From contig JALNLM010000006.1 of assembly GCA_023254095.1 (NCBI GenBank), forward strand, positions 28,146 through 92,145: a stretch of 64,000 nt of DNA. The letters run 5' to 3'. The position numbers were made by a program, and so were the translations under genes. The notes beneath the pieces are model-generated. The model did not search any database, had not been told where the DNA came from, and saw nothing but the letters and a program-made list of their open reading frames with translations. Positions 13,777 to 63,484 of this stretch are shown here, in pieces. The stretch comes from Candidatus Geocrenenecus huangii. Lineage in GTDB: Archaea > Thermoproteota > Nitrososphaeria_A > Caldarchaeales > Wolframiiraptoraceae. Numbering within the stretch: the stretch's first letter is position 1; every line of letters starts with the position of its first letter.

Positions 13777-14012
13777 CTAGAGATTAATTCATGCTCTGCT
13801 AGATAAGATTTCCTAATCAATACTCTCGTCAAATTTTTGATAGAGGAAGTGGCCTCTTCAAATTCCGTTGGAAGATAAACTTTCACAATACTAGGGAGAA
13901 AATAAAGCTAAGAAGAACCATTATGAAGTAGATTATTGAGGATAGACCTAATCACATCCACGTTATTAAACTTACATCATTAGTCAAGATTGCTTGAAGA
14001 CATACCAAATGT

Positions 14013-14096
14013 GCGGGGGGTGGGATTCGAACCCACGAACCCCTACGGGACAGGGTCCTAAGCCCTGCGCCTTTGACCAGACTTGGCTACCCCCGC
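14013..14096 (-). tRNA. tRNA-Leu(UAG), long variable arm
   Basis: The reverse complement reads GCGGGGGTAGCCAAGTCTGGTCAAAGGCGCAGGGCTTAGGACCCTGTCCCGTAGGGGTTCGTGGGTTCGAATCCCACCCCCCGCA. Anticodon loop CUUAGGA gives UAG. The variable arm is of the Leu/Ser type. No encoded CCA. Confidence 0.85.
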
Positions 14097-18346: not shown

Positions 18347-18364
18347 TGTAGGGTTTGTATCTTT

Positions 18365-19789
18365 TTGTACGATACCTCTACAAAGTCAAGAGTTATTAAT
18401 CTGTGCAACCATGTTGTTATCATGCCTAGATTGGCCATAACGGTTATAATGGTCTTCACACTAGCACTAATCGTTGCAACTCCCGCAAATGGAGAAGCAT
18501 ACACCGCAATACTGCAAGATGAAAATCTTAGGATTTCACTATATTATCCTCCAGAAGTAAAGATAAATTCTTGCTATAATTTTAGATTTGAGGCTCAAGC
18601 CTTTGAGTCACTAACAATAGGTGAGATTAGATTAAAAGTAAAGATGTATAGAAATGGTGTAACGGAAACTCTCCATGATAGTATACTTGTCGATGATACT
18701 GCGGTTGGAAGTGGGTGGACGTTCAGCAAGAACATCGTTGTATGTATTCCTACACCGAGGAGACCTGACCCATTCCTAGAAGCAGAGATATATGCAAGCT
18801 ACACTCTAGACAGTGGAGATACGAAGACATTATCAACAGAATGGTATATGTCTACCGTTAGAACGAAGACATATGATGAATTATTGTCAGAACTTGATGA
18901 AACGAAGAAGAAGATTAAATATCTTGAGGATAGGGTTAGAGACCTCGAAGACGATATAGAAGAGTTGGAGGAAAGATTATCTAATATGTCTAGGAGCTAT
19001 AACGAGCTGTTAACAGATTATAAAGCTTTACAGAAGAGTTTTCAGAGGCTCCAAGATGATTATGGCTCTTTACAGCAAAAGTACATTGGACTTCAAGATG
19101 AGTATAAGAATTTAAGCGAAGAATACAGGAAACTGTTAATCGATTATGAGAAGCTCAGAACGCTCTACGAAAAATTAATAGATGAAAATAAACAACTTCA
19201 ATCAAACTATAATTCTCTTAGAGAAGACTATATCTCATTAACGAAAGAATACTACAGTCTTCAGGGAGTCCACCAAGACCTGACAGAAAGATACAATGAT
19301 CTAACGAGCAGGTATGAGCTGAATATTGAGACTATAGGTCAACTCCAATCAACTATAGATGGTCTGGAGAAAACTATTAGAGAAAAAGATGAAAAAATAA
19401 ATGAACTCAACTTGATCTACTCTTCGACGGCGAGCGAGAATACGTTGACTAAGAGTATACTCTATGCTCAAACTGCGGCTGTAGTTGGAGTGGGAGCAGG
19501 CATATACATTATGAGTTTGAGGAGAAGGAAGTCGGCTCAACCATCGACTGGATTTTCTTCTCAGCCTCCGGTGCCTCCTCCTCCAACCACCCCTCTAAAG
19601 GAGGAGGTGAAAAACTCTGGGAATGGTAGAGTTCAGAAGATTCTCTCCGGCAGAAGGATAACCTTACCTAGAGATGCTCTAGAAAAGTTAAACATTAACG
19701 AGGGTGGAAAAGTAGTTGTGGAAGTATATGATGATTACGTTAAGATAATGCCGGTAAAAGGAGAAATACAAGAAAATAACAATAACTAG
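18365..19789 (+). CDS. Secreted/membrane coiled-coil protein with a C-terminal cytoplasmic AbrB/MazE-like (swapped-hairpin) domain
   Basis: Signal peptide 'MPRLAITVIMVFTLALIVATPANGEA', so the probable true start is about 18422. About 15 consecutive heptads 'xYxxLxx'. TM 'TAAVVGVGAGIYIMSL' followed by 'RRRK'. Pro-rich linker. C-terminal 'RVQKILSGRRITLPRDALEKLNINEGGKVVVEVYDDYVKIMPV'. Confidence 0.6.
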   Translation: MYDTSTKSRVINLCNHVVIMPRLAITVIMVFTLALIVATPANGEAYTAILQDENLRISLYYPPEVKINSCYNFRFEAQAFESLTIGEIRLKVKMYRNGVTETLHDSILVDDTAVGSGWTFSKNIVVCIPTPRRPDPFLEAEIYASYTLDSGDTKTLSTEWYMSTVRTKTYDELLSELDETKKKIKYLEDRVRDLEDDIEELEERLSNMSRSYNELLTDYKALQKSFQRLQDDYGSLQQKYIGLQDEYKNLSEEYRKLLIDYEKLRTLYEKLIDENKQLQSNYNSLREDYISLTKEYYSLQGVHQDLTERYNDLTSRYELNIETIGQLQSTIDGLEKTIREKDEKINELNLIYSSTASENTLTKSILYAQTAAVVGVGAGIYIMSLRRRKSAQPSTGFSSQPPVPPPPTTPLKEEVKNSGNGRVQKILSGRRITLPRDALEKLNINEGGKVVVEVYDDYVKIMPVKGEIQENNNN

Positions 19790-19945
19790 ATAAGTGTAGT
19801 AAACCATGATGGAGATGGTGAGAAGGATATATTCTTTAACAATTCCAGAAGAATTCTTGTTAAAGATTTCAGAGAACATCTACAAGTTTATAGAAGCTTC
19901 GAAGATTCTAGAATACGACTTCGTTGAAGACAATGTTCCAGAAGA

Positions 19946-21334
19946 GTGAGGAAAATGGTGGACTTAGCTAAGACGAGTATTAGAGGAATCCATCGAGAGG
20001 TAAGAAGCTTGAGGATAAAGCCTACAAAGATCATTGAAGAGTGTTTGAGGAGAATCCATAGATTAAATGACGCGTTAAGAATCTTCATACACCTGTCGGA
20101 AGAAGCAATTAAACATGCCGAGTATCTTGAGAAGGAGCTGGAAGAAGGAAAATGTAGAAGCGAGCTACATGGATTACCTATAGCTGTAAAAGATGCTTTC
20201 TATACTTATGATATGCCGACGACGGGCGGGTCAATAATACTAAAAGACTACAAACCACCTAAAGATGCAGAAGTAGTCCGTAAATTAAGAGATGCTGGAG
20301 CAATCATAATAGGGAAAACCAATATGCATGAATTCGCTTTCGGTGTAACGAACAAGAATCCACACTACGGAGTTACTAGGAACCCGTGGAGTATAGATAG
20401 AATAAGTGGAGGATCAAGTGGAGGCTCAGCTGTAGCGGTCTCCGTAGGAGTATGTATCGGAGGTCTCGGAACAGATACGGCAGGCTCTATCAGGATACCT
20501 TCAGCACTCTGCGGTGTAGTGGGATATAAACCATCCAACGGTCTTCTAAGTCTTGACGGGGTAATACCGCTATCCCACTCTCTGGATACAGTCGGTCCAA
20601 TAGTGAAGACGGTAGACGACGTGTCAATCACGTTGAATATTATGACAGGCAAGGTATTAACATCCCAGGAACGAGTAAGTGAATATGAAGATAGAGAGCT
20701 GAGACTTGGATTACCTAGAAAACTCATTGAAGAATGGGTTTCTGATGAGGTCGAAGAAGTATTCTGGAGATCTATTGGCAAAATTACTTCGAGGTCTAAT
20801 TGTAGGATTGTTGATATAGAGATTGAATGGTTTAAGACTATCTCTGATGCAAGATATATTATAGTGCTTTCTGAGTCTGCGGCATTCCATCTAAAGTGGC
20901 TTAGGAATAGGTGGAGCGAATATGATCCAGATGTTAGAGATAGGATATTGGGAGGCTTATTCATAACTGCGCCAGTGTATATTCAAGCTCAAATGATTAG
21001 GAAATCTTTAAAGAGGAAATTCCTAAAGATGATGAAGAACCTGGATGCGGTAATTCTACCAACTGTTCCTATTGAGGCACCCAGAGTAGAAGATGAAGAA
21101 CTAATCGTAAAGAATAAGAAGATAGGTGTTAGACGTGCATTACTCTTCTTGACGGAGTGCTTCAACTCTCTAGGAACGCCAGCGATAACTATTCCCTGCG
21201 GGTTAACAAAAGGCAATCTACCAGTAGGATTACAAATAGCAACTAAACCATACGAAGATACTCAACTTCTAGAGATAGCGGAAAGATTCGAAGGGGTGCT
21301 TGGGAGGCTACCCGAGCCCCCGATAATCCGCTAA
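19946..21334 (+). CDS. Amidase-signature family enzyme (GatA-like amidase)
   Basis: 'GGSSGGSAVAVS' amidase signature and Ser-cisSer-Lys triad region. 462 aa. Confidence 0.85.
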   Translation: MRKMVDLAKTSIRGIHREVRSLRIKPTKIIEECLRRIHRLNDALRIFIHLSEEAIKHAEYLEKELEEGKCRSELHGLPIAVKDAFYTYDMPTTGGSIILKDYKPPKDAEVVRKLRDAGAIIIGKTNMHEFAFGVTNKNPHYGVTRNPWSIDRISGGSSGGSAVAVSVGVCIGGLGTDTAGSIRIPSALCGVVGYKPSNGLLSLDGVIPLSHSLDTVGPIVKTVDDVSITLNIMTGKVLTSQERVSEYEDRELRLGLPRKLIEEWVSDEVEEVFWRSIGKITSRSNCRIVDIEIEWFKTISDARYIIVLSESAAFHLKWLRNRWSEYDPDVRDRILGGLFITAPVYIQAQMIRKSLKRKFLKMMKNLDAVILPTVPIEAPRVEDEELIVKNKKIGVRRALLFLTECFNSLGTPAITIPCGLTKGNLPVGLQIATKPYEDTQLLEIAERFEGVLGRLPEPPIIR

Positions 21335-61780: not shown

Positions 61781-63484
61781 CTATCTATAGATGAACCATT
61801 TATCATATTCGGCAGGAATGAGCTTAGTCCTCTTACAGTCAGGACATAGCTTTAGAGATTCGAGCCTATCTACATTACTCGCACCAACGCTCTCGTATAA
61901 TTTCTCGATTTTTCTCAGCTTACCTTTCGTTATAAATGGTTTACCACATCTAAGACATTTTATGAGCTCCTCCGTGATAAGGGTCTTGGAAGAATCATCG
62001 AGCAATCTCGGTATAGAGATGTATTTTTTTACCATAATCGCATTTTCCGTACAGATTTGTCTACATAGATTACAGCCTATACACCTCTGGTAAACAAAAC
62101 CTAGACGTATTGTATCCGGCTCCCTAGTTATCGTGAAAGCTTTCATCGGACACTTATTGTAGCATAACTCACATATAACGCATTTTTCCTGATCTATCAT
62201 TACTTCTCCGAATGGACATGGCTCACCACATTCAATAAACTCTACTAAAGGTCTTCTATCATCCAACAAACTCTTAACAATATCTATGAACTCGGCTCTT
62301 CTATTATATGCTCCGAAATGCTTATCTATGGATTTTTCTAATTGTTCACTCTTAACACTAGACTTAAACTCGTATAATTTCTCCAGAAAGAACCCTAGAT
62401 CATTTTCTCCAAACTCGATTAAGATTATTTTTTCTTGGTTTATGCCTGCTGATTTCAAGATGTTTCTAACCATATTCGTCTTCTGATATAGTATGTGAAG
62501 ATACTCTAGCTTATTCTCATTTCTTAATACTGGAATTATTGTGCCCGCCGCTCCATACAATATCGGAACGAGTAGTATGTTTTCAGATATTAACCCAAGA
62601 GTCGGCAATTCTATTGGAAATACTTCTAAAGGTAAGCTTAACCCCTCCTCAACAAACCTACTCAATAGATAATGGTAATCATTAGAATCGACGTACATTA
62701 TAGCCTTGGATCGCATTTCTTCTCTATGATTCGTCAAGATGGTTCTTATCTGGGCTTCTAATTGTTTATCAGTAGATTTAGGTATCTGGATGGCACCTGT
62801 AGGACATACTGCTACGCAGACCCCGCAGATACTACAATAGTCATAATCTAGGTTTAGTCCACCGTCTTCCGCACTCTTTAGAATTCTTCTAGGACATGAA
62901 TCGATGCAGAAGCTACATGCTGAAGTCCCAACGCATTTCTCTCTCAGTATGACTGGGGTCGGCTGATATACAGTAAGTATCTGTGGTAAAGCTTTAAGTA
63001 AGCTTCTTCTAGTAATCTTAGATTGAGCCTTTATTCTTCTTGGCTTGACCTCCTCAATCAACCGCATATGCATCATCTTCTCAAAGATGCTGCATATCAT
63101 GAGGCCAAGCTTCAGGGTAGTATGGCTAGAATATTCTCTCGGTAGGTTTTTGAAAAGTTCTCTTGAAGGTATCAATTCTAGAGATAAAGGATTTAGGCCA
63201 GCGCTCTCAACTATGTCGGCGAAAGTCTCTTTATACAATGAACAACCGGCAAGTAATACTCCCTTAAAATTCCCTTTTTTCAGTTTTTCACGTATAGTAG
63301 CGGGTTCTCTGCAAAGTTCATTAAAGAAGTATACTGTCGGGATACTTATTGAATCCTTAATATAGTCTTCCAGCTTCTCAAAATTTACCGACTTGATATT
63401 TCTCATACATCTACATATAAGTATAGCTATCTCTGCATCTCTATGCATCATATAATTTCTCCCTATACCTTTGCATGGATACAA
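61781..63484 (-). CDS. MvhD/FlpD-like domain fused to a polyferredoxin (4x[4Fe-4S]) with C-terminal Zn-ribbon
   Basis: N-terminal 'AILICRC...VLLAGCS' (MvhD-like). 'CVGTSACSFCIDSCP', 'CSICGVCVAVCP', 'CVICELCYNKCP', 'CIGCNLCRQICT'. Terminal 'CLRCGKPF...CPDCKRT'. Confidence 0.6.
   Translation of the reverse strand: MYPCKGIGRNYMMHRDAEIAILICRCMRNIKSVNFEKLEDYIKDSISIPTVYFFNELCREPATIREKLKKGNFKGVLLAGCSLYKETFADIVESAGLNPLSLELIPSRELFKNLPREYSSHTTLKLGLMICSIFEKMMHMRLIEEVKPRRIKAQSKITRRSLLKALPQILTVYQPTPVILREKCVGTSACSFCIDSCPRRILKSAEDGGLNLDYDYCSICGVCVAVCPTGAIQIPKSTDKQLEAQIRTILTNHREEMRSKAIMYVDSNDYHYLLSRFVEEGLSLPLEVFPIELPTLGLISENILLVPILYGAAGTIIPVLRNENKLEYLHILYQKTNMVRNILKSAGINQEKIILIEFGENDLGFFLEKLYEFKSSVKSEQLEKSIDKHFGAYNRRAEFIDIVKSLLDDRRPLVEFIECGEPCPFGEVMIDQEKCVICELCYNKCPMKAFTITREPDTIRLGFVYQRCIGCNLCRQICTENAIMVKKYISIPRLLDDSSKTLITEELIKCLRCGKPFITKGKLRKIEKLYESVGASNVDRLESLKLCPDCKRTKLIPAEYDKWFIYR

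Follow-up and report, generated by a model that had tools for sequence, protein, structure and literature searches.

What could be the role of a protein that carries, in a single chain, a long stalk on the outside of an archaeal cell and a DNA-binding-type domain on the inside? The question is raised by an open reading frame (ORF) at positions 18365–19789 (+) of a 64,000-nucleotide (nt) stretch of the genome of the hot-spring archaeon Candidatus Geocrenenecus huangii (contig JALNLM010000006.1), referred to below as the window. The initial annotation regarded the product as a membrane-bound transcription factor of the ToxR/CadC kind with a large extracellular sensor. The reading proposed here is a different one: an envelope stalk resembling SlaB, the stalk protein of the Sulfolobus surface layer (S-layer), is fused to a membrane-tethered AbrB regulator, which is probably autoregulatory via phased boxes upstream of its own gene. 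It is put forward tentatively, with a little less than even confidence.

The ORF is present as described and represents a real gene rather than a chance reading frame, because 20 full-length homologues were retrieved from a set of 5.8 billion proteins and 41 loci from species-representative genomes. The gene was recovered once per carrying genome. All loci named to genus or family belong to Caldarchaeales or Wolframiiraptoraceae (Geocrenenecus, Wolframiiraptor, Benthortus, Calditenuis), and the remaining loci bear broad labels only. The closest match from a named species is Ca. Geocrenenecus arthurdayi (71% identity); a metagenome-assembled genome of Nitrososphaeria gives 74%. Current database names for the family members are limited to AbrB domain or hypothetical protein, apart from Joint Genome Institute (JGI) annotations, which mention an antitoxin. 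No description of a stalk-AbrB protein family was found in the literature searched.

The start originally given to the gene, TTG 18365, has to be replaced. All 19 aligned homologues (19/19) begin at the Met of ATG 18422 (MPRLAIT...), a TATA box lies 29 nt ahead of this codon, and TTG 18365 is located upstream of the TATA box, within a repeat array; ATG 18422 is therefore almost certainly the true start, to judge from the alignment and the promoter position. The product then comprises 455 amino acids (aa), and the residue numbers used below follow this start.

The N-terminal region (aa 1–24, MPRLAITVIMVFTLALIVATPANG|EAY, positions 18422..18493, +) is hydrophobic, with a Kyte-Doolittle 19-residue average peaking at 2.4. 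Together with a conserved −3/−1 site, this bears out the signal peptide of the initial annotation. The putative signal-peptidase site reads ANG|EAY here and VYA|EAY or VNA|EAY in homologues, position −3 being A, V or I and position −1 A or G. Cleavage by signal-peptidase I would be expected from this pattern.

The signal peptide is followed by the predicted extracellular head (aa 25–148, positions 18494..18865, +), recognized from an AlphaFold2 (AF2) model, a Foldseek search and the homologue alignment. The modelled domain has about 120 aa and nine strands (predicted local distance difference test score, pLDDT, 89.7); the beta-rich character assigned to it earlier is thus retained, and its size, previously put at about 110 aa, is corrected. 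The homologue alignment reveals an invariant pair of cysteines (Cys51/Cys108) and an invariant YPPEV motif; a DPF motif is also present. Among PDB structures Foldseek returned generic E-set sandwiches only, at a TM-score of about 0.5 (arrestin N-lobe, ML/Der p 2, RhoGDI, ApaG, TRAP-beta), and the profile search of Pfam, NCBIfam and PDB gave no match for the head. Neither SlaB nor any sensor family could be proposed as its homologue, nothing specific having come from these searches. The head is accordingly modelled as a generic immunoglobulin-like (Ig-like), E-set beta-sandwich.

These results bear on the possibility that the protein is a one-component sensor of the ToxR/CadC style, in which an external ligand or condition would be sensed by the head and DNA binding by the AbrB domain at target promoters altered in response. 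ML-type sandwiches, known from Der p 2 and NPC2, do appear among the structural matches of the head, and beta-sandwiches of this type bind lipids, so that a ligand-binding head is conceivable. Nevertheless, no sensor family is matched by the head, and such a function is considered unlikely.

Between the head and the membrane lies the coiled-coil stalk (aa 151–337, positions 18872..19432, +). In the full-length AF2 model it forms one continuous helix of 187 aa, and the heptad count gives 27 unbroken heptads, so the long coiled-coil stalk of the initial annotation stands. Over 20 homologues, hydrophobic residues occupy 89% of a and 92% of d positions, versus 13% of all other positions. Across the family, Tyr is found at about half of the a positions (Tyr/Ile in the present protein) and Leu at 78% of the d positions; a Tyr/Leu core of 27 uninterrupted heptads is unusual. 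An invariant TIGxL motif occurs near aa 304–308. At 0.15 nm per residue the stalk would measure about 28 nm. Indels among the homologues within the stalk are exactly 7 aa long, and the span between the end of the head and the membrane helix is quantized, with lengths of 194 or 201 aa in the AbrB-bearing forms. Length conservation in whole heptads is spacer-like and argues against a sensor. The stalk would be oligomeric, its Tyr/Leu core pointing to no particular number of copies.

The transmembrane helix (aa 346–366, ILYAQTAAVVGVGAGIYIMSL, positions 19457..19519, +) is rich in Gly and Ala. It constitutes the sole internal hydrophobic window of the protein (Kyte-Doolittle 1.6), is followed by RRRK and is conserved in homologues. 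The basic stop-transfer RRRK and a Pro-rich linker including PPVPPPPTTP (aa 367–403, positions 19520..19630, +) come next, in agreement with the single membrane helix and the linker initially described. The linker was delimited by low model confidence (pLDDT <50, AF2) and by its length variation, 23–66 aa among homologues. The 15 aa on the C-terminal side of the helix carry four positive charges, and the 15 aa on the N-terminal side have a net charge of zero.

The predicted topology is N-out, C-in. The AbrB domain is placed in the cytoplasm because a signal peptide precedes the outer part, the flanking charges obey the positive-inside rule, and the invariant Cys pair is confined to the outer domain; the location originally assigned to the AbrB domain is thus upheld. 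N-glycosylation sequons were dropped as topology evidence: they occur at 2.2 times the expected frequency only in the short Thermofilum-type relatives described below, with no excess in the AbrB-bearing forms.

The membrane helix contains conserved small residues, GVGAG, which could destabilize it and so recall a mechanism of proteolytic release. In this scheme envelope damage or turnover would lead to cleavage of the stalk and then to intramembrane cleavage of the Gly/Ala-rich helix, liberating a soluble AbrB regulator; the nearest relatives of the AbrB domain indeed act as small soluble proteins. However, no protease gene is linked to the stalk gene in the synteny groups compared, and a close packing of membrane helices in an oligomer would account for such small-residue runs just as well. 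Release by proteolysis appears quite improbable.

The C-terminal domain (aa 404–446, positions 19631..19759, +) was assigned to the SpoVT/AbrB swapped-hairpin fold by PF04014 and by profile matches to PDB structures. PF04014 (cutoff 24.7 bits) is matched with 28.6 bits by the C-terminal 61 aa and with 27.0 bits by the C-terminal 122 aa; the full-length protein, at 24.1 bits, falls just below the cutoff. All 20 homologues (20/20) match the model, with a best E of 2e-11, which substantiates the swapped-hairpin assignment of the initial annotation. TIGR01439 remains below its cutoff (21.8 versus 28.3 bits). When the family profile was compared with solved structures, Sso7c4 was the best match (2L66, 5ITJ; E ~1e-4), followed by MazE, SpoVT and AbrB. 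In the AF2 monomer the domain consists of a helix (417–423) and two strands (431–435 and 440–444) with pLDDT of about 67–70, and the order of these elements fits the fold. The signature QK-LSGRR-T-P is invariant in the family. The protein ends in a short acidic/polar tail and the stop codon (positions 19760..19789, +), delimited from the sequence and the homologue alignment; the length of the tail varies among homologues.

As in Sso7c4, AbrB, MazE and SpoVT, the members of PF04014 with which the C-terminal 45 aa share the profile, an Arg is conserved in the beta1-beta2 loop; R411 and R412 are invariant there. In Sso7c4, R11 (of the Arg pairs R11/R22) is needed for DNA binding (PMC5222340), and this residue falls in the same loop. 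The known members differ in being small and soluble or in having the domain at the N-terminus, whereas in the stalk protein it follows a membrane tether at the C-terminus. DNA binding by the AbrB domain is, on the strength of these residues, plausible but not assured.

The AbrB domain is most closely related to soluble proteins of 46–76 aa, several of them from Nitrososphaeria, with the common signature QK[IV]LSGRR[IV][TSP][IL]P. The tethered domain appears to keep the conserved surface of a free-standing subfamily, because exactly this signature is common to the soluble relatives. It belongs to a distinct QK[IV]LSGRR subfamily without a characterized member. The soluble genes are located at L046 5982–6131 and in loci L051, L053, L055 and L057 (genes of P0099, P0086, P0088, P0090 and P0092); several of them lie near restriction-modification, TIR or transposase genes, and their upstream regions are rich in TGTA/TACA.

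The closeness to Sso7c4, regarded as a chromatin protein (PMC3159460, PMC5222340), gives some weight to a purely structural role. The protein could be a strut or anchor whose AbrB domain helps in dimerization, acts as an adaptor, or ties the nucleoid non-specifically to the membrane, and the TGTAGC boxes discussed next would be bound by another factor. This explanation is likewise regarded as unlikely.

The candidate operator (positions 18347..18382, +), recognized by its sequence and conservation, comprises three direct boxes, TGTAGG at 18347, TGTATC at 18356 and TGTACG at 18366, and an inverted CTACA at 18378–18382. The direct boxes are spaced 9–10 bp apart, and the array begins directly after the stop codon of the upstream gene, outside the ORF first described. 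It is followed by the promoter (positions 18387..18399, +), seen in the alignment as a purine-rich stretch resembling the transcription factor B recognition element (caagag) and the TATA box TTATTAA (18393–18399). The columns AA..G.TATTA are invariant in an alignment of 10 upstream regions. The distance of 29 nt from the beginning of TTATTAA to ATG 18422 is the geometry expected for a leaderless archaeal mRNA, and the transcript of the stalk gene fits this type.

Ahead of the orthologue in each of the three synteny groups, whose upstream genes differ, the array consists of two to four YGTAKS boxes (TGTA(G/T)(C/G)), 10–11 bp apart, abutting the TATA box. Ten more loci, inspected subsequently, have it as well. 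Among 5-mers the strongest enrichment is that of GTAGC/GCTAC (45 occurrences versus 4.6 expected), which is present in 28 of the 33 distinct upstream regions. Phased pairs are enriched 128-fold: 21 were counted in 4.3 kb of upstream sequence and 16 in the remaining 417 kb of these loci. The window contains three triple phased TGTA arrangements (0.09 expected), of which only that at the stalk-gene promoter is intergenic.

The array accompanies the AbrB domain: none of the four AbrB-less relatives examined has it upstream. The soluble QKxLSGRR subfamily also has a box excess upstream of its own genes, with 13 boxes in 750 nt (five loci) versus 3.6 expected (Poisson 1e-4). Both facts speak against a purely structural strut whose boxes are served by an unrelated factor, and the phased array gives indirect support for a DNA-level function of the stalk protein. 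A conserved operator-like array at its own promoter could also be expected of a ToxR/CadC-style sensor. A precedent is provided by MraZ, the AbrB-superfamily regulator of the bacterial dcw operon, whose targets ahead of its own promoter are GTG(G/T) boxes separated by 6 nt (PMC12957436). In both cases short boxes with a periodicity of about 10 bp are located just upstream of the regulator's own promoter (PMC12957436). MraZ differs in being soluble and in having a tandem double domain that forms rings, and the homology recognized with the domain of the stalk protein is that of the superfamily fold.

A regulon within the window was considered and rejected: the other phased-box matches, at about 20443, 37888, 50448, 58653 and 62050, are coding or were not taken as sites. 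The match in L013/L014 is coding too. Four phased TGTA boxes at window positions 62050–62083 (−) are situated inside the ORF 61781–63484, which encodes several 4Fe-4S domains and a FlpD-like domain; this cluster is probably coincidental.

Whether the outer part depends on the AbrB domain can be judged from its relatives. A head-profile search of 1.84 billion representative proteins yielded 35 relatives. The AbrB domain is present in the relatives of more than about 430 aa and missing from those of 314–376 aa, which are uncharacterized and include the hypothetical protein ABL78400.1 of Thermofilum pendens (UniProt A1RYX0) and other Thermofilum proteins. The Thermofilum-type short forms share the signal peptide, the beta-sandwich, the coiled coil and the membrane helix (head profile E from 1e-19 to ~1e-4). 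They differ in a shorter distance from the head to the membrane helix (stalk of 140/147 aa), in having a short basic or Pro-rich tail in place of the AbrB domain, and in the lack of the upstream TGTAGC array. Two further relatives without the AbrB domain (L049 3001–4206 and L050 3001–4161) possess the Caldarchaeales-type long stalk of 190–196 aa; the box array is absent upstream of both, and one ends in a Lys/Glu-rich tail. No split AbrB gene was found downstream of the AbrB-less relatives. Two of the short forms, P0045 and P0049 (L048 8001–8984), have many cysteines, including CC pairs, in the head and at the beginning of the stalk, which suggests heavy disulfide bonding.

Since the same head, stalk and anchor occur without the AbrB domain, the outer module appears to work without it and to predate it. 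The AbrB domain would then be a later addition to an envelope module of the SlaB kind, as far as the comparison of sequences allows. The occurrence in Thermofilum of the same head and stalk with no output domain also argues against a ToxR/CadC-style sensor, as does the poor route for a signal through some 28 nm of rigid stalk, one membrane helix and a disordered linker of 23–66 aa. The extracellular sensor postulated by the initial annotation is therefore not supported: its head is modelled as a generic Ig-like fold, it matches no ligand-binding family, and the same outer part recurs in AbrB-less relatives.

In SlaB of S. acidocaldarius (Saci_2354), a protein of 475 residues, the signal peptide precedes three beta-sandwiches; a helix of 132 aa then forms a trimeric coiled coil, and residues 448–470 span the membrane (PMC10903991). 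The stalk-AbrB protein has the same order and orientation of elements, namely a signal peptide, an N-terminal Ig-like sandwich, a long coiled coil and a C-terminal transmembrane helix, and both proteins would hold the head tens of nm above the membrane (PMC10903991). The differences are a single beta-sandwich, a 187-aa helix and an 89-aa cytoplasmic tail with the AbrB domain, the lack of a slaA-like neighbour beside the gene, and the self-anchored PySLP-type S-layers predicted for the stalk-AbrB lineages (bioRxiv 10.64898/2026.08.21.746120). No sequence homology to SlaB was detected with the NCBIfam SlaB model, which matches the coiled coil only (26.9 bits versus a cutoff of 700), and the head matches nothing.

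Both Thermofilales and Caldarchaeales are predicted to have tall, self-anchored PySLP-like S-layers (37 nm in Pyrobaculum), the Caldarchaeales proteins being larger (bioRxiv 10.64898/2026.08.21.746120). Stalk length follows the same direction, at about 29–30 nm in Caldarchaeales versus 21–22 nm in Thermofilales. This two-point correlation with the size of the S-layer protein would suit a strut or spacer beneath the canopy but goes no further. The SlaB-like layout is also in line with a purely structural role. S-layer mutants of Sulfolobus have an altered chromosome copy number (PMC10903991), which offers a precedent for an envelope-nucleoid link.

How does the protein relate to known membrane-bound regulators? 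By the broad definition, a transmembrane regulator combines a DNA-binding domain and a transmembrane segment in one protein (PMC10269533). One membrane segment (346–366) and a predicted cytoplasmic AbrB domain place the stalk protein within this definition, the regulation itself being predicted from sequence; the layout is shared with ToxR, CadC and ArnR/ArnR1, all single polypeptides with a membrane segment and a cytoplasmic DNA-binding-type domain (PMC10269533, PMC6396743). To this extent the definition also favours a sensor. Transmembrane regulators as such are not poorly documented in archaea, as had been stated: 1,384 were surveyed (PMC10269533), and ArnR/ArnR1 have been studied (PMC6396743). 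The statement holds for the AbrB type, of which no member appears in the text and accessible supplements of the 2023 survey (PMC10269533).

The proposed resemblance to ToxR/CadC is not sustained. The known regulators have helix-turn-helix (HTH) or winged HTH (wHTH) domains, and the stalk protein has a swapped-hairpin AbrB domain and an outer structural stalk; no wHTH match was obtained in it, which places it outside the ToxR/CadC family. In ToxR and CadC the cytoplasmic wHTH is N-terminal and the periplasmic sensor C-terminal. In the stalk protein this order is reversed: it has a type I layout, requiring a signal peptide, with the DNA-binding-type domain at the C-terminus and of another fold class. 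A sensor is further disfavoured by the genomic context, since the gene stands alone and occurs once per genome in 41 species genomes, unlike typical accessory sensors.

The envelope stalk with a tethered AbrB regulator could function as follows. After removal of the signal peptide, a parallel homo-oligomeric coiled coil would keep the Ig-like head about 28–30 nm away from the membrane, at roughly the level that is predicted for the S-layer canopy in these lineages. The coiled coil would run on into the Gly/Ala-rich transmembrane helix, and inside the cell RRRK and the Pro-rich linker would carry the half-barrel AbrB domain. Such a half-barrel should fold only by pairing with a second copy, and oligomerization of the stalk could supply the partner; for this reason only the membrane-assembled protein would present a competent DNA-binding dimer. 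The tethered AbrB domain would most likely bind the phased TGTA(G/T)(C/G) boxes abutting the TATA box of its own gene. The flexible linker could reach about 7–20 nm if extended, and the gene would be near the membrane during synthesis of its product because of co-translational insertion and coupled transcription and translation. Expression of the stalk gene, and possibly of other genes, would thereby be tied to the amount of stalk assembled in the envelope, whichever sign the regulation may have. In its narrowest form, the stalk spanning the pseudo-periplasm would be its own regulator: the paired AbrB domains of assembled stalks would bind the boxes of their own promoter, with no separate sensor or messenger. 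This version is possible, and it is offered with considerable doubt.

Several observations weigh against the proposed stalk regulator. If the stalk were trimeric like SlaB, AbrB pairing would have to take place between neighbouring stalks. No conserved envelope-gene neighbour of the stalk gene was found in the loci compared, and the AbrB-bearing forms lack the sequon excess seen in the short forms. The boxes could belong to another regulator. Their motif was defined after inspection of the same promoters, in loci that are phylogenetically related; the AbrB-less controls are four only and come from other lineages, and two of the five loci account for most of the box excess among the soluble relatives. 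A further point concerns the contacts with DNA. In AbrB of B. subtilis, residues R8, R15, R23 and R24 contact DNA or determine specificity. In a hand alignment built from the conserved Pro, R412 presumably corresponds to R15, and the positions of R8, R23 and R24 are taken by Q405, L and E. By this alignment one of the four Arg residues is kept; the loss of the others also favours the purely structural alternative.

The surroundings of the gene are variable. ORF clustering of 46 loci produced three mutually unrelated synteny groups, in which the gene lies between PUA and amidase genes (group A), beside radical-SAM enzyme genes (group B), or between 2-hydroxyacid dehydrogenase and Ldh genes (group C). 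The clustering revealed no neighbour common to all three groups, so there is no fixed operon partner, toxin gene or adjacent lattice protein, and a conserved operon partner is ruled out. No large secreted protein is encoded within ±6 kb in any synteny group or anywhere in the window.

This context speaks against a membrane-tethered antitoxin of the MazE/VapB type, a role suggested by the name of the best Pfam model, MazE_antitoxin, and by the JGI annotations. The three synteny groups contain no adjacent toxin gene, the neighbours being PUA and amidase, radical-SAM enzymes and dehydrogenases. The homologue alignment shows no conserved toxin-binding extension after the AbrB domain, as the C-terminal tail is short and variable, and the gene is vertically conserved at one copy per carrying genome. 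With no toxin gene beside the stalk gene, the antitoxin role is close to refuted.

Between the stalk gene and the amidase gene, a 47-aa ORF (MMEMVRRIYSLTIPEEFLLKISENIYKFIEASKILEYDFVEDNVPEE, window positions 19806–19949, +) overlaps the amidase start with its end. Homologues are found at the same place in loci L001 and L002. An assignment to GatC was rejected, the ORF being conserved yet without a Pfam match; possibly its product serves the amidase as a small subunit or partner. The sole tRNA gene in the window is tRNA-Leu (anticodon TAG, positions 14011–14096, −).

Little is known about how archaea couple envelope building to gene expression, and the few archaeal membrane-bound regulators studied so far use helix-turn-helix domains. 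The organisms concerned are uncultivated or grown in enrichments only. Each part of the stalk-AbrB protein is of a known kind; the combination, absent from the papers searched, would be an AbrB output on a membrane-anchored protein in type I orientation, with a 27-heptad Tyr/Leu stalk and a dedicated phased operator. In this family a single chain unites an envelope stalk and a DNA-binding-type domain, and a concrete DNA sequence can be named as its candidate target. In the two orders for which very tall S-layers are predicted, the family points to a second, previously undescribed envelope component, and it delimits an uncharacterized AbrB subfamily that also occurs in ammonia-oxidizing relatives. 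If the proposed reading is true, the protein would be without precedent among transmembrane regulators both in its AbrB domain and in its type I layout (signal peptide and C-terminal DNA-binding domain), and a DNA target would be defined for the archaeal QKxLSGRR subfamily. The construction of the envelope would then be read straight into gene expression.

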